This document shows, one piece after another, positions 1-31,016 of a stretch of DNA of 31,016 bases. Below the pieces are notes generated by a model. That model was not told the origin of the DNA, made no database searches, and worked only from the letters and a program-made list of their open reading frames with translations. The position numbers and the translations under genes are program-made. Origin of the DNA: an uncultured Rhodospirillaceae bacterium. Lineage in GTDB: Bacteria; Pseudomonadota; Alphaproteobacteria; RF32; CAG-239. Each line of letters opens with the position of its first letter. The first letter of the stretch is position 1. Location: NCBI GenBank assembly GCA_900320035.1, contig ONQU01000121.1, forward strand, positions 1 through 31,016, written 5' to 3'.

Positions 1-3000
1 ACCTCTGGCGAGAATGCCATAGCTATCATCGGCCGAATAAACATTGATTGTGCCGCTGTTGGCCAGTGTTCCGGTGGCATCAGCAGTTGAGACCATGGCA
101 TAACTGTTGTTAACATCAATTTCTACTGCTGTTTCACTTGCTTCCTGTCCGACATTAATTGTGCCGCTGTTGGTTACATTGGCACTACCGGATGCTTCCA
201 GACCATAGCTGTTGTCATTGCGAATGTTTAATGTCGCATTATTGTTAACCGAACCGCCGCCGGCATAAATTGCGGCACTGTTCGCATTATGCAAATTGAT
301 GGTTCCGTTATTTTCAATTGTTGCCTCACCGGTAGAATAAATGGCATAGCCGCGTTCGCTTGCCGTTGCATCGTTATAAAGATTTATGATGCCGTTGGTT
401 GCGTTCGTAATGGTTGCAGTTCCGTCGGTATAAATGGCATAGCTGTTTTTCACCGGCGTTGTTGCTTGTCCAACATTGATTGTGCCGCTGTTAGTCAATT
501 TAGCCGTCACAGGTGTGTCAACACCGGCATACATACCATAAGCATTGTTGTTATAAAGGTTAATGATGCCTTGATTATCAGCCTTGGCGTTACCTTCAAG
601 CCAGATTGCACCGCCTTGATTTGAAGCAGCATCGTTTTGGGTATAAACATCAATTGTTCCTTTATTGGTTATAACAGATGTTGAATTGGTATTGGAAAAA
701 ATACCATAACCGGTGCTGATTTGTTTGTCATTAGAGCCGATTTGAATATTTGCACCGCTGTCATTCAAAACTTCTTGAGAATTACCGCCCAAATAAATAG
801 CAGCACTTTCATCCCCGTTCATTTGAATTACACCGCGGTTATGTACCTTTGATGCGCTGGAAGCATACATACCAAGTGAATGTTTATAATCTACCGTGAT
901 TTCCGCACCACTTGCATTGATAACACTTGAGCCTTTTTCCGAAGCACTGGCCATTGCTGCCGCATATTCGGAATTGGTTACAATGGTGCCATAATTGACA
1001 ATTTGCGCTTTTTCATCAGTTGTAGAACTTAAGAACATACCGATAGCATTGGTCATATTTGTACTGCCGGTTTTGTTTTTGAGTGTAATTGTGCCGTAAT
1101 TCAAGCCCTGTCCTTCAGCGGTGTTAACCTGCATGGCCGCTACAAATGAAGCATTTTCAATGTTAATGGCGGCGGTGCTTCCCATTTCGTCACCGTTATA
1201 AATCTGTTCGGTGGTTGAACTGGTACTGTTGGCTGCTGTATCTAACACGCCAATACCAATTGTCGGCACATAATTTGTAAACGGTTCTGAACCGTCGGTA
1301 GGGGCCGTTGTTGCCGTATAATCTGTTGTGCTTTCCGGATTATTGTCATAATAAGGTCGCGCATTATAGTTGATTGTGCCTTTATTGATGGCGTTAGAAT
1401 AAGCACCGGCAAAAATTTTGGTGCTACGCGCATTGTCATAGACATTGATTGTGCCGTCGTTTACCATTTCCGTTCCGCCACCAAAGTCATTTTGCATGGC
1501 TACCGATGAATATGAATAAATATTTATGGTGTTGGTGTTAACTAACTTGGCATACGGTGTTACCGTGCCGGCGGCATACATGGCTATATTATTTTTATAT
1601 TTTGTGTTGGTTGGAATACCTAGAGTAATATTGCCTGAATTTGCCAACGTTCCGCTGTTGAAAGTTGCCATACCGTAGCTGTTACTGGCGGTAATATTGA
1701 TATTGCTGCCATTGGTCAAACTTGGTTGTGGCCGCGTATATAAACTGGAAACTTGTCCGCTTCCTTCTACCGAAAGCATACCATAGTTAATACGATTATT
1801 AGTTTCCGGTGTGGTAATTGCGATACTGCCGCTGTTGGTAATTGTGCCGCCGTGTACGGCTTGCATACCGGCTGAAACATTAACTCCTTCACTGGTGCCG
1901 TTATCATCTAAATTTATGGTAATTGTGCCGTTATTGTTTGCACTACCATTAGCATCGGCACGCATACCGACAATGCCACCCAAACCGTCGCGTAAGTCAG
2001 TTTCTGCCGAGGTTGTGTATGATCCTGCATAACGCAACAGAATATCACCATTATTAACCAAATTCACTTTTTCGGCGCGATTGATATTTTTTGAGCCGTT
2101 TAAAAATCCATAGTCCAAATAACTACCCATGCCGACCAGTTCTACAGCCACATTTGAAGCGCTACCGGTTCCGGCATTTAGAGAAATTGATCCCGCATTT
2201 GTAATGTTTATGGTGTCTTGATTCAGATTCTGTCCGGTATTGATAATCATCGCTTCCATACCAATTAATGAACCGATGATTGCGGTGGTCGAATCGGCTA
2301 AAGTGGCCGTTCCTAAAATATCACCATTGTTAATAATGGTTGACTTGGTATCAGCATACATACCAATTACTGTTTCTTTGCTATTTTTACCGGCAAAGAA
2401 AATATCGATACCGTTACCGACAGCAGACTTTCCATAATTTACTGCCGTTGAGCCTTCACTGGCAACCATAGCGATTGATGCGTTCTGTACTTGTTTTAAA
2501 TTGATATATCCGTAGTTTTCAACCAAACTGTTTTTTAGAGCATCCATGCCAATTGTGCCATTGCCGATTTCCATAACCGTGCCGGCCGTGTTGACATAGC
2601 TGCCATTGTTGTAGGCTTTTAAAACCACATCCAAGTAGTCGGAATTTTGTAAAACATTATTGTTAAAAAATACGGAATAAATGTTTTGTTTGCCGTTGGA
2701 ATGTTCTTGATAAGTTGTATTCTGCATGGCTGCTGCTGTGGCATTTTTATCAACCGTACCATTTTGAGCGGCTGTTGCACCCAAGCTGTTGTAATCTTCT
2801 TGAGGATCTGGTGTCTTTGACGAACTGCTACCGCCGCCGCCACCGCCGCCACCGAGGGCAATAGCCGCGACGATACCGCCGACCAATAATGCTCCGCCAG
2901 TCCACCAAACCCATGGCGAAACTTTGTATTCTTCTTTACCTAAGGCACTATATGCTTCACGCGAATTAGCTGTCATCGGTACCGCATTTGAGTTACGCAC

Positions 3001-3330
3001 AAATTCATTATAATTATCAATATATTGTGTACATGGATGGTGCGGATTGGCTCCGGCGGCTCGAAATGCATTATATGCTCTGATATCGCGGCGTTCGGCA
3101 GCGACACACAAGCCGGTGTAGCCATTACTGTTTGTCGCATCAATATTTAACCCACGATACATGGAAGCACGTAGGCCTTCAACTTCACCGTTGTGCGCCA
3201 TAGCATACATGCGATTAAACGACTCTGGCGGTAAACCCCAAGCTTTAGCATTTTGCGGTATTGAAGCCAATATAAACGAATATATTGTTACACCGCATAC
3301 AGTTTTAATAAATAGCGAATTTTTAAGCAT
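1..3330 (-). CDS. Large surface adhesin / autotransporter-like passenger protein, 3'-partial (runs off the left edge, >=1110 aa)
   Basis: Hand translation from ATG 3328-3330 (AAGGT RBS just upstream) is stop-free to base 1. It begins MLKNSLFIKTVCGVTIYSFILASIPQNAKA|W (signal peptide), then an ankyrin-like segment, a hydrophobic stretch plus Gly8, then many N[SN]GTIN[VL]-type beta-helix repeats as in BigA/Fusobacterium-type passengers. The beta-barrel is not visible in the window. Missing from the ORF track because no stop falls in the window. Confidence 0.8.
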   Translation of the reverse strand, partial: MLKNSLFIKTVCGVTIYSFILASIPQNAKAWGLPPESFNRMYAMAHNGEVEGLRASMYRGLNIDATNSNGYTGLCVAAERRDIRAYNAFRAAGANPHHPCTQYIDNYNEFVRNSNAVPMTANSREAYSALGKEEYKVSPWVWWTGGALLVGGIVAAIALGGGGGGGGSSSSKTPDPQEDYNSLGATAAQNGTVDKNATAAAMQNTTYQEHSNGKQNIYSVFFNNNVLQNSDYLDVVLKAYNNGSYVNTAGTVMEIGNGTIGMDALKNSLVENYGYINLKQVQNASIAMVASEGSTAVNYGKSAVGNGIDIFFAGKNSKETVIGMYADTKSTIINNGDILGTATLADSTTAIIGSLIGMEAMIINTGQNLNQDTINITNAGSISLNAGTGSASNVAVELVGMGSYLDYGFLNGSKNINRAEKVNLVNNGDILLRYAGSYTTSAETDLRDGLGGIVGMRADANGSANNNGTITINLDDNGTSEGVNVSAGMQAVHGGTITNSGSIAITTPETNNRINYGMLSVEGSGQVSSLYTRPQPSLTNGSNINITASNSYGMATFNSGTLANSGNITLGIPTNTKYKNNIAMYAAGTVTPYAKLVNTNTINIYSYSSVAMQNDFGGGTEMVNDGTINVYDNARSTKIFAGAYSNAINKGTINYNARPYYDNNPESTTDYTATTAPTDGSEPFTNYVPTIGIGVLDTAANSTSSTTEQIYNGDEMGSTAAINIENASFVAAMQVNTAEGQGLNYGTITLKNKTGSTNMTNAIGMFLSSTTDEKAQIVNYGTIVTNSEYAAAMASASEKGSSVINASGAEITVDYKHSLGMYASSASKVHNRGVIQMNGDESAAIYLGGNSQEVLNDSGANIQIGSNDKQISTGYGIFSNTNSTSVITNKGTIDVYTQNDAASNQGGAIWLEGNAKADNQGIINLYNNNAYGMYAGVDTPVTAKLTNSGTINVGQATTPVKNSYAIYTDGTATITNATNGIINLYNDATASERGYAIYSTGEATIENNGTINLHNANSAAIYAGGGSVNNNATLNIRNDNSYGLEASGSANVTNSGTINVGQEASETAVEIDVNNSYAMVSTADATGTLANSGTINVYSADDSYGILARG

Positions 3331-5615: not shown

Positions 5616-6611
5616 TTATAAAATCTCCCGATGGCGTTTTTTCAGATGTGTCAGTTTATCGCTGACAACACCCGTATCATGTCCGGCGTATGCCAGACGG
5701 CTATACATCTTTTCAATTTCCCGCTCTAAAAAAGCTGTTTCAACACTTGCAACCAATGCTTGTTTTTGTTCGTTGGTGCCATTTTTTTCTATGTGTTTAA
5801 CTTCAGCAAAACAATCTTCAACATCTTTTCCATAAACATTTTTTTGCTTAATATAATAAGGTAGTTTATAAATTAGTAATCGAGCATTGGTATAATGTTC
5901 TTTACTATTTGAACACTTATAGCAGGTCATTTTTAAGAGCCGAAAGGCAATTTCAAGTTCTTCAGCATCATCAACCACAATAAAAGGCACCGGATCGGCA
6001 AATCCTTCGTGTACCATCAATTTTAAAAATTCTAACAAATGGTGAAAATAACCGTTGATGTTGTAAAGAATAAAAGGCTTCATCGGTAAAAGACCATCTT
6101 GCATGGCTACACAATCATAAGCTAATTCATCCAAGGTGCCGACACCGCCGGGAGCAAAAACCACGTAATCGGCATTTAAGAGTTTCTGTTTGCGTTCTTC
6201 TAATGTACGCGCCACAACAACTTCCATTTTAGCAATTAATGTGTCATCACTCGGATACAGTTTGTAATATTCGGCAGTAGTAATTCCCTGAATAGGTAAG
6301 TTCCCTCTTTTTTCTTTGGCGTTCCAACTATCAAGCACACCGCGTGCCACGGCGCCCATAATACCGCTGTTAGAAAGACCAAAATCGAGACGGAAATCCA
6401 TTTTAACGATTTTTTGCCCTAAACGGTACGCTTCAGCAACATATTGTTCGTCATTACCGGCACGTGAACCGCCGGCTACAAAGACACGAATACCGGCCTT
6501 GCTGTTTTCGGCTTTAAACAGTTCTATGGCTTGATCTTCATCCTTTGTTGTCTTTGCACTTGTTTTTACTAAATGCCGAGGCATCATTTCGTCCGAGCGA
6601 TCATGTTTCAT
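5616..6611 (-). CDS. LOG-family nucleotide phosphoribohydrolase with C-terminal helical extension
   Basis: Rossmann start RVFVAGGSR...AYRLG...GIMGAVARG; EERK and PGGVGTLDE LOG motifs; roughly 90-100 extra C-terminal residues. Confidence 0.8.
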   Translation of the reverse strand: MKHDRSDEMMPRHLVKTSAKTTKDEDQAIELFKAENSKAGIRVFVAGGSRAGNDEQYVAEAYRLGQKIVKMDFRLDFGLSNSGIMGAVARGVLDSWNAKEKRGNLPIQGITTAEYYKLYPSDDTLIAKMEVVVARTLEERKQKLLNADYVVFAPGGVGTLDELAYDCVAMQDGLLPMKPFILYNINGYFHHLLEFLKLMVHEGFADPVPFIVVDDAEELEIAFRLLKMTCYKCSNSKEHYTNARLLIYKLPYYIKQKNVYGKDVEDCFAEVKHIEKNGTNEQKQALVASVETAFLEREIEKMYSRLAYAGHDTGVVSDKLTHLKKRHREIL

Positions 6612-6613
6612 GG

Positions 6614-7756
<1,143 letters not shown>

Positions 7757-26452: not shown

Positions 26453-26561
26453 TGTCCCTTGCCGGATTCTTGTAAAGATTCGGCTATACATTGAGCGGTC
26501 GGTGCTATATTTAATATATTGCCGACTATTTGTTGAGTAATCCATAAGGAGATATTTTAAT
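26453..26561 (+). promoter_or_regulatory. Putative S6:S18-binding rpsF leader
   Basis: GTCCCTT (26454-60) can pair with AAGG-A-GAT over the SD (26546-53); hairpins 26461-26484 and 26498-26526; CCA just 5' of the SD, as in the known S6:S18 CCR leader. Confidence 0.45.
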
Positions 26562-26900
26562 ATGGCAAATTATGAAAGCGTGATTATCGCGCGTCAAGAT
26601 CTCGGCTCCTCACAGGTTAACACTTTGGTTGAAGAATTGACCGGTGTTATTAAGGCTGAAGGCGGCGAGGTTGTAAAAGTAGATAACTGGGGTTTGAAAA
26701 ATCTCGCTTATCGCGTTAAGAAAAACCGTAAAGGTTATTATGTTTTATTAGACATTGTTGCTCCGGCAAGCGCTATCAGTGAATATGAACGCCGCATTCG
26801 TTTGAATGAAGACGTTATTCGCTATATGACAGTGCGCGTTGAAGAATTTAACAACGAAGTTGCTTCTGACGAACAACTAGATGAAGCAGTTGAAGCATAA
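26562..26900 (+). CDS. rpsF: 30S ribosomal protein S6
   Basis: [40 protein letters not shown]. Confidence 0.98.
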
Positions 26901-26913
26901 GGGAGAAAGAACA

Positions 26914-27141
26914 ATGGCTACAAAACAAACAGTTTTCAAAAGAAAAAGTTGTCCGTTTTCGGGTGAAAATGCGCCGAAGATTGACTATAAAGATGTGAAG
27001 TTGCTTTCTCGTTACATTTCTGAGAAAGGTAAAATTATTCCATCACGTATTACATCTGTTTCGGCTAAAAAACAAAGAGAATTAGCTCGCGCCATCAAAC
27101 GTGCTCGCTATATTGCCTTGTTGCCGTATGTTGCTATGTAG
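26914..27141 (+). CDS. rpsR: 30S ribosomal protein S18
   Basis: [38 protein letters not shown] (alphaproteobacterial type); start at ATG 26914 after GGGAG. Confidence 0.98.
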
Positions 27142-27150
27142 GAGGCTGAT

Positions 27151-27636
27151 ATGGAAGTAATTTTATTGGAACACATTGAAAAGTTAGGCAAAATGGGCGA
27201 TAAAGTAAACGTTAAAAACGGTTATGCTCGTAACTATTTATTGCCACAACAAAAGGCTTTACGTGCTACCGAAAGCAATATGGCTTATTTTGAAGCGCAA
27301 AAGGCTGCTTTAGAAGCACACAATAAAGAATTGCTGGAAACAGCCGGTAAATTAGCCGAATCTTTGAACGGCTTTAACGCCGTATTGATTCGTCAAGCCG
27401 CTGAAACCGGTCAACTTTATGGTTCGGTTACGATTCGTGACATTGCCGGCGCTATTAAAGAAGCCGGTTTTGACGTAGCTCGTCGCTATATTTATTTGGA
27501 AAAGCCGATTAAAGATTTAGGCATTTACCAAATTAAGCTGAATTTGCATCCGGAAGTAACACAAACCATTTTGGTTAACGTTGCTCGTAGTGCAGAAGAC
27601 GCTAAAAAGCAGGCCAAAGCCTATAGTCAAGAATAA
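27151..27636 (+). CDS. rplI: 50S ribosomal protein L9
   Basis: MEVILLE..EKLGKMGDKVNVKNGYARNYLLPQ, GQLYGSVT, LHPEV. Confidence 0.98.
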   Translation: MEVILLEHIEKLGKMGDKVNVKNGYARNYLLPQQKALRATESNMAYFEAQKAALEAHNKELLETAGKLAESLNGFNAVLIRQAAETGQLYGSVTIRDIAGAIKEAGFDVARRYIYLEKPIKDLGIYQIKLNLHPEVTQTILVNVARSAEDAKKQAKAYSQE

Positions 27637-27654
27637 TTTTTTATTCTCAGATTG

Positions 27655-27694
27655 AAAAAAATACCCATTGGTTGATGCTGATGGGTATTTTTTT
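27655..27694 (+). terminator. Bidirectional intrinsic terminator after rplI (repeat copy 1)
   Basis: A7-TACCCATTGGT-TGAT-GCTGATGGGTA-T7. Confidence 0.85.
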
Positions 27695-27695
27695 A

Positions 27696-27724
27696 TTGAC
27701 AAAAAGAAAAAGTTTGATTATATT
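27696..27724 (+). promoter_or_regulatory. Near-consensus sigma70 promoter for the downstream ORF
   Basis: TTGACA-N17-TATATT, starting 1 nt after the terminator T-tract. Confidence 0.75.
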
Positions 27725-27746
27725 AGCTTTATAACACAAATTATTT

Positions 27747-28316
27747 ATGCGTATGAAATTATTAGTATTAAACCCAATAGTATTCCCTCTATTGGCGTTG
27801 ATGCTACCTCGGAAAATTTCCGAGCTTATGGGAAACAAGAGAGTATGGTGGGCTTTGGTCGGATGGCAAATATGTATCCTACCATGGCGAGCCAAGTGGT
27901 GGTTTGTCCATCAAAATCCGCAATATTTCAGCCAGGATGATTGGGTGAAATATTATCGTAAAGCGGCAGACGGTGCCGGTGCATTGCGCCATTTGCGTCA
28001 TTGTGATACCGATATTTGCGAAAAGTTGTGGAACACCTGTGGCTACCACGATGCGAAAAATATTCTCAAATCTCTGCGTCTGTACGAGACCGAACACCTT
28101 AAATTCATGTTGGTTAACAAGGAATTCAACGGTTGGCTGTGGGAGTATACCCAAAGGATGGTGCTTCCGACGGATTTTGTTAAGTCCTTGATATCAGAAA
28201 TTTCCGGAAAGAATGATAAGGATGATATACGTTGGAAAATCATTAAACTGCAGATTGATCGTAATGACGAATTGCGTAAAACACTGAGTAAGGAAGAATT
28301 GAAAAAATTCGCATAA
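27747..28316 (+). CDS. Hypothetical protein with hydrophobic Trp-rich N-terminus
   Basis: 189-aa ORF with its own promoter and terminator; no family recognised; start could be 27753. Confidence 0.7.
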   Translation: MRMKLLVLNPIVFPLLALMLPRKISELMGNKRVWWALVGWQICILPWRAKWWFVHQNPQYFSQDDWVKYYRKAADGAGALRHLRHCDTDICEKLWNTCGYHDAKNILKSLRLYETEHLKFMLVNKEFNGWLWEYTQRMVLPTDFVKSLISEISGKNDKDDIRWKIIKLQIDRNDELRKTLSKEELKKFA

Positions 28317-28320
28317 CAAG

Positions 28321-28356
28321 AAATACCCGCTGGTTGAAACCGGCGGGTGTTTTTTT
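28321..28356 (+). terminator. Intrinsic terminator (repeat copy 2, homologous to 27659..27694)
   Basis: AAATACCCGCTGGT-TGAA-ACCGGCGGGTGT-T6; 28/36 identical to copy 1. Confidence 0.85.
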
Positions 28357-28404
28357 GTGCCTGAAAAATTTGTCAAAAAAATCTAAAAAATCGGTAAATT
28401 TTGC

Positions 28405-28433
28405 TTGATTTCATAAAAAAACTGTGCTAGATT
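28405..28433 (+). promoter_or_regulatory. Sigma70-type promoter with extended -10
   Basis: TTGATT-N17-TAGATT with TG at the extended -10 position; predicted +1 near 28440. Confidence 0.6.
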
Positions 28434-28531
28434 ATAGACAATTACCAAATTATCTTTGTGGATTTTTCCGTACGTATTATAAATAATAATTATGGAAAGA
28501 GATAAGTCATAATAGATAAGCCGAATATAAC

Positions 28532-28559
28532 TGTCATTCCGAACGTATGTGAGGAATCT
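28532..28559 (+). repeat. CGTC-class (dRS3/RPE-like) REP palindrome, copy 1
   Basis: TGTCATTCCGAACGTATGTGAGGAATCT fits the YGTCATTCY-N-RGAATCT pattern. Confidence 0.75.
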
Positions 28560-28856
28560 TCGTACTTTAGTGCGATTTTGACAGACATGTTTTCGCGCTT
28601 AAGATATTGAGACAAAATCAAATTCCGCAGGTTTGGTAATATTCATTAAAATTTTTTTCATTCGCTGATAATAATGTTATACCCAAAAGCATTTATCGAT
28701 TAATTTGAAGATCCCTTGACGCATTTGCCTAATGGCAAAGCGAGGGAAGACAATTAAATTCGAAGATGCCCTGAATTTTGCGTTTCGTAAAATAGGTATG
28801 ACAATTTATTTTCAGCGTCAATATAAATTAAACAGCTCCCCCGCACTAAAGTGCAG

Positions 28857-28895
28857 AGATTCTCACGTCGCAACAAGTTGCTCCTCAGAATGACA
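28857..28895 (-). repeat. CGTC-class REP palindrome, copy 2 (inverted)
   Basis: Minus strand reads TGTCATTCTGAGGAGCAACTTGTTGCGACGTGAGAATCT. Confidence 0.75.
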
Positions 28896-28901
28896 CAGAA
28901 T

Positions 28902-28935
28902 CGTCATTCCGAGTAAGCGTAGTGACGAGGAATCT
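28902..28935 (+). repeat. CGTC-class REP palindrome, copy 3 (inverted doublet with copy 2)
   Basis: CGTCATTCCGAGTAAGCGTAGTGACGAGGAATCT, 6 nt from copy 2. Confidence 0.75.
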
Positions 28936-28995
28936 CCGAACGCAGTTCGGCAACGGAGCAAATAAAAAGAATATTAACAATAAAATTTCAAAGAT

Positions 28996-31016
28996 ATGGC
29001 AAACGTAAAGAGTTTAGCAGCCCGCATCATCATGATGGTGCTCTGCACAGTTATGGGTTTCACCACTCTGACCTCTTGTAACGAGGGTGGCAAATACGAT
29101 ATGGCTCCAGCGAGTGAACCTGTTGTTCGTGATGGATACTCTTTTAAGAGCTATCAGACCACTGACGGTGCTCAAGTAGATGGTACATGGTCTCAGACCA
29201 CTGACGGCATTGTCACCGACAGTGCTAAGGCTTCGGCCACCATCCAGGCAGCCGTTAAGCTGCAGGAGGCTGAGATTGAGATCAATAGCACGTTGAAAAA
29301 TAACAATGTGTGGTCATTTGATTCAATTTCACAACCTACAGCCACGGTAGACGGCTATCGCTGGACAGGCTATATGAGCAAGAACGACGGCCAGAAGGCT
29401 ATCTTCTCGTTCAACAGCCGCACGGCAGGTCTGCGTAACTTGGTTATAGGCCTTGAGCCTGTGGCAGTGCGTTCCACTGGAACGACCAACACCGCCACTC
29501 AAGTTCACAGTGGTGAGCGTGAGCGCATGCTGACTATAGAGGATTTCATGGCAACTGTCCGCGAGACAGGTACCGGCCGTAGCAATACGGTTGAAATTCC
29601 CTTGCAGGCCAGCTATCTCAGGTACATTCCGGAGAATGCTCCTGTCGTTGTGGACAGCATCATCGTATGGAAGGATGGCGAAGAAATTCGCTCATTCTAT
29701 AAGGTATTAGCCACCACCGAGCAGGCTAAGGTTCAGATTGTTTACATTCTGAGCGATAACAGTCGCGTCGACGGACCGGCTTACTCTATCGAAGTACCCC
29801 GTCAGCTTTGGGGTTCCGAAGACAAGATGTACGTTTCTACTTTTGAGCAGAACATTGGCACTTCTTTCAGCGGCCAGTCGGTCGTTGAAGAGGCAAAGAG
29901 CGATGAGTATTCCAATGAAAACTTCACAGTTTCTTACGAGACCACGAAGCGCTCTTGGGAGCACACTCAGCTTGATGTCAACGGCAACAAGGCTGTAACA
30001 GCCCTGTTTGGTAAGCTGCCACACATCATCTTCAATCATGGCGCATTAAGCCATGACTTCGGTAAGCTTCCTCTTGACGTAGTGAATACGTCAGTTGAAG
30101 TTGTTGATGAAAACTCCGTCGTTGAGGATGGCAATAGCTATGAGGTTAAGCAGCTGCGCAATACCATCAGCACCAACTACGGTGTTGATTCAACAGGTAT
30201 TGTTGCTCAGCAGGTCATTTCAACAGTTGACCTTCTGAAGCTGCAAGAGGTTGTAAAGCTGGACACCATCACAGTGGTGATGTCACAGAACTGGCTTCCC
30301 AGCCAGGGCACCTTTACTTGGAAGTTGACGGAGCATTACTCCAACAACACCACCAAGGACACCACCATCGTTTGGTCAAGCGCTCGTTCAATCGAGGCCA
30401 ACCATTTCGAGAAGGAAGATGTCAAGAAGGCCCTGAGTGAGGGTTCGGTGAAGACCGAGGTTGCTCATAGCGACGTCAAGAGCGTTGTTAATCCTTCATA
30501 TACCATCCGCTACAAGGTGGCAACCGCCACTTACAGCTGGGTGAACACCTTCGTTAAGGAAAACGCTACTTCTGTCGTTACCTCTTCTCTTCCCGAGAAT
30601 GTTACGCTGAAGTACAAGGGCTACACTTTTGTTCAGCCCGCTGTTGAGGTTAGCTACACTCGCGAGAGCGGTTCGCTGACCGAATCCTATAACGACGGCT
30701 CAACCGTGGTTTACGACTACAAGTCGAATTTCACGGAGAGTGTTAAGGGTTATAGCAACTCAGCTGCCAAAGCGATTGCAACTGGTACGCTCACTGTAAA
30801 TGCCGCTGTTCCCACAGGTTGGGAGCTTCTCTCAAAGACTAATGAGTACTTTATGTTCAATCACACTGTTGGTGCCAAGTACAGAGTTAATTACTCTGAT
30901 GGATCCTATCAGGAGTTTGCATTTAGTGAAGTTATTAAGGGCGAGAGCGCTTCTACTTCTGTCGAGACGACAGAGGACGAGGTGAGCGAGCGCGTTGGTG
31001 CTCCTGCTGACTATAT
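28996..31016 (+). CDS. Large Bacteroidetes-type lipoprotein, 3'-partial (>=673 aa)
   Basis: Hand translation from ATG 28996 is stop-free to the right edge: MANVKSLAARIIMMVLCTVMGFTTLTS|CNEGG (lipobox LTSC), then a Ser/Thr/Val-rich beta-type body. There is no SD, and Lys codons are about 34 AAG to 3 AAA. Missing from the ORF track. Confidence 0.85.
   Translation, partial: MANVKSLAARIIMMVLCTVMGFTTLTSCNEGGKYDMAPASEPVVRDGYSFKSYQTTDGAQVDGTWSQTTDGIVTDSAKASATIQAAVKLQEAEIEINSTLKNNNVWSFDSISQPTATVDGYRWTGYMSKNDGQKAIFSFNSRTAGLRNLVIGLEPVAVRSTGTTNTATQVHSGERERMLTIEDFMATVRETGTGRSNTVEIPLQASYLRYIPENAPVVVDSIIVWKDGEEIRSFYKVLATTEQAKVQIVYILSDNSRVDGPAYSIEVPRQLWGSEDKMYVSTFEQNIGTSFSGQSVVEEAKSDEYSNENFTVSYETTKRSWEHTQLDVNGNKAVTALFGKLPHIIFNHGALSHDFGKLPLDVVNTSVEVVDENSVVEDGNSYEVKQLRNTISTNYGVDSTGIVAQQVISTVDLLKLQEVVKLDTITVVMSQNWLPSQGTFTWKLTEHYSNNTTKDTTIVWSSARSIEANHFEKEDVKKALSEGSVKTEVAHSDVKSVVNPSYTIRYKVATATYSWVNTFVKENATSVVTSSLPENVTLKYKGYTFVQPAVEVSYTRESGSLTESYNDGSTVVYDYKSNFTESVKGYSNSAAKAIATGTLTVNAAVPTGWELLSKTNEYFMFNHTVGAKYRVNYSDGSYQEFAFSEVIKGESASTSVETTEDEVSERVGAPADY

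Follow-up and report, generated by a model that had tools for sequence, protein, structure and literature searches.

Two similar hairpins behind rplI and an orphan gene: probably sister copies of an ordinary intrinsic terminator

Covarying hairpins that lie on either side of an accessory gene resemble recombination sites, several kinds of which have been described. The dif core recognized by XerC and XerD has the form ATAA-N6-TTAT with a TTATGTTAAAT-type XerD arm, CALIN do not require an integron integrase to be encoded in the genome that carries them, and minimal mobile elements are variable loci between conserved genes that are exchanged by homologous recombination in the flanking DNA. The term "minimal mobile elements", applied to Neisseria, occurs in PMC3787668. 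In integrons and CALIN, attC sites of 57-141 nt form imperfectly conserved hairpins that sit in direct orientation around single small genes, frequently of unknown function, and that are conserved more in structure than in sequence (PMC4889954, PMC5027507).

Except for the length of the sites, the locus analyzed here shares these latter traits. It lies in a stretch of DNA of 31,016 nucleotides (hereafter the window) that corresponds to contig C86 of a 1.23-Mb assembly of 40% G+C and 78% completeness, and near-identical DNA is present in bovine and sheep gut metagenomes. Two hairpins, T1 and T2, follow the ribosomal protein gene rplI and a 189-codon open reading frame, ORF189, respectively, the core of each being only 26 nt long as compared to the 57-141 nt of attC sites [Table 1]. 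The twofold succession of hairpin, promoter and gene that the first-pass annotation had described is real: the promoter-like sequences P1 and P2 match the consensus at 11/12 and 8/12 positions. By consensus match only, P1 came out at the top of an 11-kb promoter scan; P2 ranked below the matches listed in that scan, is conserved in one congener, and opens a unit made of the promoter, a leader of ~560 nt and a lipoprotein gene. The annotation had proposed that self-contained expression cassettes insert at such hairpins, and had offered as the simpler alternative an old terminator duplication kept under selection for termination. The evidence presented below favors the latter, and our reading is that both hairpins are terminators and most likely copies of one ancestral hairpin, a combination that we hold to be probable.

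Table 1. Annotated features surrounding hairpins T1 and T2 (numbering of the window)
Feature	Position	Strand	Description
rpsF	26562-26900	+	ORF; S6 called on identical contigs
rpsR	about 26914-27141	+	ORF; S18 called on identical contigs
rplI	27151-27636	+	ORF; Pfam Ribosomal_L9_N/C on 27151-27633; L9 called on identical contigs
T1 (hairpin 1)	27655-27694	+	A-tract; stem 27662-27672/27677-27687; loop 27673-27676; T7 27688-27694
P1 (promoter-like)	27696-27724	+	TTGACA-17-TATATT; 22 nt upstream of the ORF189 start
ORF189	27747-28316	+	189-codon ORF; orphan gene
T2 (hairpin 2)	28321-28356	+	Stem 28324-28334/28339-28349; loop 28335-28338; T7 28350-28356
P2 (promoter-like)	28405-28433	+	TTGATT 28405-28410, 17 nt, TGC-TAGATT 28425-28433; read from the sequence
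Leader with REP-like hairpin repeats	28500-28950		
Lipoprotein gene	28996-31014, open at window end	+	ORF with lipobox-like LTSC

Structure and predicted function of the hairpins

The two hairpins had first been recognized as direct repeats at 27659-27694 and 28321-28356, 662 bp apart and identical at 28 of 36 positions, and these coordinates and letters are correct. A position check further confirmed that seven of the eight differences preserve pairing while the eighth, at repeat position 18, falls in the loop. The pairs at repeat positions 9/24 and 10/23 are changed on both sides, and positions 19, 21 and 29 are swaps between wobble and Watson-Crick pairs. As plus-strand RNA, T1 and T2 each form an uninterrupted stem consisting of an 11-bp core with an A/U extension, closed by a 4-nt loop, with folding energies of -21.3 kcal/mol (z -8.5) and -26.3 kcal/mol (z -6.6), respectively; none of 200 shuffles folded as well. 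Minus-strand RNA folds 7-11 kcal/mol worse (T1, -14.0 kcal/mol; T2, -15.7 kcal/mol) owing to the G-U pairs of the stems, of which T1 has three and T2 has two, and the DNA folds are weak on both strands (-9 to -12). This strand asymmetry argues that the constraint acts on plus-strand RNA rather than on DNA, be it a cruciform or an attC-type hairpin of the bottom strand.

Other assemblies of the same species yielded seven distinct strain variants of T1 and T2, in which 98 of 98 cells pair and five pairs are changed on both sides; when the 3′ partners are shifted by one to three columns, pairing falls to 44-61%. Single changes likewise keep the pairing, as in the T1 of strain contig L040 (G-U to A-U) and the T2 of L033 (G-C to G-U). 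Together with their strain variants, the two hairpins neatly illustrate, on a small scale, how a stem evolves by way of wobble pairs.

From this anatomy, T1 and T2 are predicted to be the Rho-independent (intrinsic) terminators of rpsF-rpsR-rplI and of ORF189. A run of seven T residues abuts each stem with no spacer, T1 starts 18 nt past the rplI stop codon and the T2 repeat 4 nt past that of ORF189, and the genes are co-oriented. Acting as plus-strand RNA, T1 would end the rpsF-rpsR-rplI transcript, and T2 would end the ORF189 transcript started from that gene's own promoter. The sequencing runs found are represented by contigs, which show neither transcript ends nor absence; one metatranscriptome contig spans 27760-28035 and no RNA contig crosses T1, observations to which we give no weight. 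The Rfam family psRNA14 matches both hairpins below threshold (31 and 25.5 bits as compared to a gathering score of 60), which we read as a generic likeness between hairpins followed by a U-tract.

A hairpin with a T-run occupies the position of T1 in all 20 congeners examined. The stem behind rplI differs from one species-level lineage to the next among them, a common stem being seen in very close pairs only. A terminator thus belongs after rplI in this genus, with a sequence that turns over fast. The first-pass idea of one conserved hairpin behind a ribosomal operon did not survive this comparison, since the rplI terminators of other species reach at most 25 bits on a covariance model for which only T2 variants were used.

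Descent of T1 and T2

Several lines of evidence make common descent of T1 and T2 likely. Each is the nearest non-self match of the other in the 1.23-Mb genome, with 8 mismatches, the next site having 11. When 214 terminator-like sites of this genome were compared in register (22,791 pairs), T1/T2 and five near-identical pairs were the only ones with 8 mismatches or fewer, setting aside sites that match their own reverse complement. These five (on C142, C88, C74/C119, C53/C92 and C140/C144) differ by 0-3 mismatches, and no pair as diverged as T1/T2 was found besides it at this threshold. The stem length, the loop length and the register of T1 and T2 are equal, and their 28 identities are reached without a gap. 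Two of the near-identical pairs were examined: that of C142 belongs to tandem paralogous genes and that of C88 lies beside an apparent tRNA gene. The C142 genes (6386-7220) encode proteins of 93 and 92 residues that have diverged from each other, and their last codons and terminators are identical over ~39 nt, suggesting gene conversion or strong constraint at their 3′ ends.

The covariance model from T2 variants alone served as a leave-one-out test and was run on 50 genomes of the genus. With 42.0 bits, the T1 of the window led the other terminators of its own genome, T2 aside, by 9.5 bits, but was only level with the three best generic terminators of the 50 genomes (42.2, 41.7 and 41.4 bits). 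The T1 of the diverged strain L075 reached 50.7 bits, as compared to that overall maximum of 42.2. A model from both copies gave 69-75 bits for T1 and T2 over a continuum of generic terminators ending at 48 bits, a separation that arises by construction. The closest pair across lineages, L075 T1 and L033 T2, is identical at 30 of 36 positions, including the entire 3′ arm, and wobble steps connect the AU/UG and GU/CG pairs of the 5′ side; earlier forms of T1 and T2 were thus probably more alike than the present ones. Concerted evolution of the two hairpins was considered as well and rejected, the copies of L075 being less alike (24/36) than those of the window.

The main competing view is that T1 and T2 are independent terminators that resemble each other fortuitously or because both converged on a common design, with no duplication having taken place. 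Terminators of the genus do share a style (an A-tract, an ACCC...GGGT stem base, a short loop and a T-tract), and unrelated ones in three other genomes (G002, G048 and G020) obtain the same 41-42 bits on the T2 model as the T1 of the window. The hupB/era terminator of another species (G015) is about 78% like T2, flanks included, which puts such likeness by chance at roughly one in ~10,000 comparisons, a rough estimate from the 50 genomes, and the flanks of T1 and T2 are unrelated. Moreover, the pair came out of a first-stage survey of very many windows, in which some chance pairs of this quality are expected, and the other near-identical terminator pairs examined accompany duplicated genes whereas rplI and ORF189 are unrelated. 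Set against this, the look-alikes are the best of an estimated more than ten thousand terminator-like sites in the 50 genomes while T1 and T2 are a single comparison between neighbors; T1 leads its own genome and the L075 T1 leads overall; and the two agree in stem length, loop length and register with no gap. We regard an independent origin as rather doubtful.

The likeness is restricted to the hairpins. The 86-124 nt after and the 68 nt before each of them align no better than dinucleotide shuffles, the observed local alignment score being reached by 388 of 500 shuffles for the sequence after and by 155 of 500 for the sequence before. Thus, no ordinary segmental duplication is visible, and with flank alignments at the level of shuffles a joint duplication of terminator, promoter and leader was dropped from consideration. 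A copy of the hairpin only could result from a tandem duplication with gene loss, from import of a block of a tandem array, or from template switching at the palindrome, a replication process reported in PMC8794818 to create and maintain RNA hairpins. In the reading that we prefer, the copying would have occurred within this species' lineage, no earlier than the arrival of ORF189 behind rplI, and each copy would then have drifted independently through G-U intermediates while selection kept the stem; the copy may have been made by tandem duplication of the segment from T1 to the ORF, with the second gene copy being lost later. If these neighboring terminators behind unrelated genes indeed share descent in nothing but the hairpin, one may ask by what means a new transcription unit comes by its terminator.

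Two more specific histories bear on this question. T1 and T2 may have arrived together with ORF189 as a block from a donor in which the gene was part of a tandem array with one and the same terminator after every member, displacing the resident rplI terminator. C142 offers a model of such an array, in which two diverged paralogs of 92/93 residues are each followed by an identical terminator; in addition, T1 has no relative among the rplI terminators of other species, and DNA homology to congeners ends at the end of rplI. The A-rich stretch from the rplI stop codon to T1, however, fits a pattern found in many congeners (TAATTT...GAT...AAAA), so that the left edge looks resident. The homologs of ORF189 in the genome G011 are single and have unrelated terminators, and neither a second family member nor a gene remnant lies upstream of T1. 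On balance we find a block import unlikely. In the other scenario, the terminator hairpin served as a landing pad for an acquired gene, through a Campbell-type single crossover, in which a small circular DNA enters by hairpin-sized microhomology, or through a template switch at the palindrome; with either route, one hairpin copy would be left on each side. We give this very little weight; if true, it would be a general route by which terminators at operon ends capture new genes and at once insulate them.

The gene between the hairpins and the DNA behind rplI

The ORF189 protein is all-alpha with one N-terminal hydrophobic helix, and belongs, in shortened form, to a genus-restricted family whose members have 355-379 residues. 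It covers just the middle of these longer relatives, lacking their first membrane helix and ~140 residues at their end. The family seems to be confined to the genus and forms four clusters among 1.84 billion representatives. No Pfam family was found for ORF189, and the Atlas assigned it with fairly high confidence to a "hypothetical protein" cluster. The structural model (pLDDT 88.5) has an all-alpha, repeat-like fold, for which a Foldseek search of the PDB and of AFDB clusters returned a best E-value of 0.26 and generic alpha-solenoid entries only. The nearest homolog is a 359-residue protein of G011 (41% identity) whose gene lies beside rplS between unrelated terminators. Insertion of a hairpin into a full-length gene was rejected as an explanation for the short form, the missing N- and C-terminal parts having left no remnant in 27000-29500 (noise at E > 0.5).

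Among strains, ORF189 is under purifying selection (dN/dS 0.15-0.37) and is far more diverged within the species than rplI: in L075, rplI is identical at 331 of 336 positions and ORF189 is 85% identical with a dS of 0.54. It occurs as old alleles of mosaic make-up, in which exchange of the C-terminal part also takes in the 5′ edge of T2.

Behind rplI, everything differs between species, and ORF189 is lineage-specific at this place. The sister lineage L041 has an identical L9 protein and 92% identity in rplI DNA, with 38 synonymous differences. Behind its rplI, at positions 966-1540 of L041, another terminator, a TTGACA promoter and a gene for a 136-residue signal-peptide protein with R/Q/Y/V-rich repeats are found. 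The P1 tail, together with the leader and start region of ORF189, resembles the leader behind rplI in L041 to an extent reached by 2 of 500 shuffles, which we take as no more than a weak hint. From ~28370 to the start of the lipoprotein gene, the window is homologous to a segment of G011 (contig C10, L045) that lies there after tuf and not after rplI, and P2 is, as judged from this arrangement, part of another unit than P1 and ORF189. A homolog of the lipoprotein gene with the same promoter and leader follows tuf in that contig. Between tuf and the lipoprotein promoter of L045, at about 2700-3130 on the minus strand, at least three tandem units of ~90 nt are present, of the type ...GTACA...CTTCGTATTTAC...TTTTTTTGATTTTTT; the window has no such array.

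The leader of the lipoprotein gene carries several REP-like hairpin repeats of 45-65 nt that are dispersed through the genus, with many matches of 45-60 nt in 37 of 49 congeners. One type, GATCCCTTGACG...CGAGGGA, lies at 28700-28756 and occurs in tens of copies across 37 of 49 congeners; another, GTCATTCCGA...GAGGAATC, lies at 28533-28560 and 28903-28935. Contigs of other strains skip 28530-28607 and 28833-28972, indicating that the REP-like elements come and go within the species. These repeats are separate from the hairpin pair and are the truly variable DNA of this region.

The presence of ORF189 itself does not vary within the species. The L9 protein of the window was found on 12 contigs, and among the 10 of these that were listed, nine have rplI DNA that is identical or differs by one base; all nine carry ORF189 at equal spacing. 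Four further contigs, found through ORF189 variants, have the same arrangement, so that 13 contigs, each from a different sample, have ORF189 at this place. A joint of 27658 to 28321, as would be left by removal of the unit, was absent from the contigs of four runs over 26500-29300, and DNA contigs bridge T1 (27515-27953 and 27299-28302). The first-pass annotation had held that cassette insertion would be refuted if relatives had the ORF fixed in place with no presence or absence variation bounded by the repeats, and had asked for rplI-downstream loci to be compared across strains; with ORF189 in 13 of 13 same-species contigs and no variation from repeat to repeat, this is what we find. Cassette insertion at the hairpin is thus left without support, there being two copies only and ORF189 being fixed in place.

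What does vary between strains is the allele. The contigs compared are identical to the window over the upstream 2.3-2.4 kb and differ from it at 27800-28324 (L036), at 27800-28250 (L072) or at 28038-28080 and one T2 base (L033). The lipoprotein gene is hypervariable within the species and nearly saturated with changes, showing 40-100 differences per 100 nt as compared to L036 and L072, and L033 is nearly identical to the window throughout this gene. Only one of six mosaic ends touches a hairpin. The mosaics are, as far as their sequence tells, ordinary patches of homologous recombination, and nothing suggests that T1 and T2 move genes.

The hairpins could also be imagined as recombination sites at the two ends of a mobile cassette of promoter and gene, resembling attC, resembling Xer/pdif sites or belonging to a new kind, and this may seem attractive at first sight: direct repeats bracket a self-contained and lineage-specific gene, the 11-bp arms and 4-6-nt center give each hairpin the size of an Xer site, and the locus behind rplI varies between species. 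We nonetheless judge it very improbable. The hairpins are few, the search of the genome and its relatives that the annotation had called for having returned the two copies here, none in 49 congeners and no family; the T1/T2 pattern had no match in the 49 congeners with up to 3 mismatches, and its exact degenerate form had none among the genomes of 185,579 species, each represented once. Relaxing the pattern gave only 10 matches in a metagenome collection, all of them unrelated hairpins from organisms of 36-60% G+C. As the annotation had noted, the attC cores RYYYAAC and GTTRRRY are missing, neither strand having one at a distance of up to 30-40 nt from T1 or T2. T1 and T2 contain no extrahelical or unpaired bases over the 26-nt core, all cells being paired in the seven variants, and their DNA and minus-strand folds are weak. 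The ATAA-N6-TTAT core of dif is absent from the hairpins, the arms of which are fully palindromic; the strict dif pattern, which has no match anywhere in the assembly, is uninformative here. Of the four tyrosine recombinases that the genome encodes, two score best as XerD and XerC, one as a phage-type integrase, and the fourth is a fragment; none in this 78%-complete genome reaches the level of an integron integrase (at most 141 bits on TIGR02249, for which the cut-off is 265). Finally, the presumed cassette has its own promoter, homologs of ORF189 occur elsewhere with no such hairpin, the gene is fixed, and the mosaics are not bounded by both hairpins.

The locus may serve as a calibration case, in that covarying hairpins around an accessory gene look like recombination sites and the tests point to plain terminators, on the grounds of copy number, occurrence in relatives, G-U strand asymmetry, fixed presence and mosaic boundaries.

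Likeness to described systems

The resemblance to attC sites of integrons and CALIN that was outlined above does not extend to the details of the sites. T1 and T2 are devoid of R''/R' cores, of extrahelical bases, of an unpaired central spacer and of a variable terminal structure, and they are strong as top-strand RNA and not as bottom-strand DNA. Furthermore, ORF189 has its own promoter, and the two sites are the only ones and show no sign of exchange. With dif and pdif sites, the hairpins have in common two 11-bp arms around a short center, in a genome that encodes XerC and XerD. They are unlike the conserved dif core, however, and their arms are full palindromes in which a XerC side and a XerD side are indistinguishable; in contrast to pdif modules, they form direct rather than alternating repeats, and no module is gained or lost among strains.

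REP/BIME-like or MITE-like repeats are, as T1 and T2 are, short palindromic intergenic elements able to double as terminators. Such repeats are multi-copy, however, and the T1/T2 hairpin exists twice, in a single species; real REP-like examples, genus-wide and present or absent among strains, lie 200-600 bp downstream of T2. The locus is also reminiscent of minimal mobile elements in that the content behind rplI differs by species and in that ORF189 and the lipoprotein gene have mosaic alleles between identical flanks within the species. It differs from them in that alternative gene sets were not seen within the species and that the hairpins play no visible part.

The closest match is provided by intrinsic terminators, with which T1 and T2 share a G+C-rich perfect stem, a short loop, a tract of seven T/U residues, an upstream A-tract, a position just past a co-oriented stop codon, and compensatory and wobble changes that keep the pairing. 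In anatomy the two hairpins are no different from these. What is odd about them is that two neighbors are 78% alike when their flanks are not and the genes they follow are unrelated. T1 and T2 are thus, in all likelihood, ordinary intrinsic terminators of a known kind that stand behind unrelated genes, and probably sister copies of each other.
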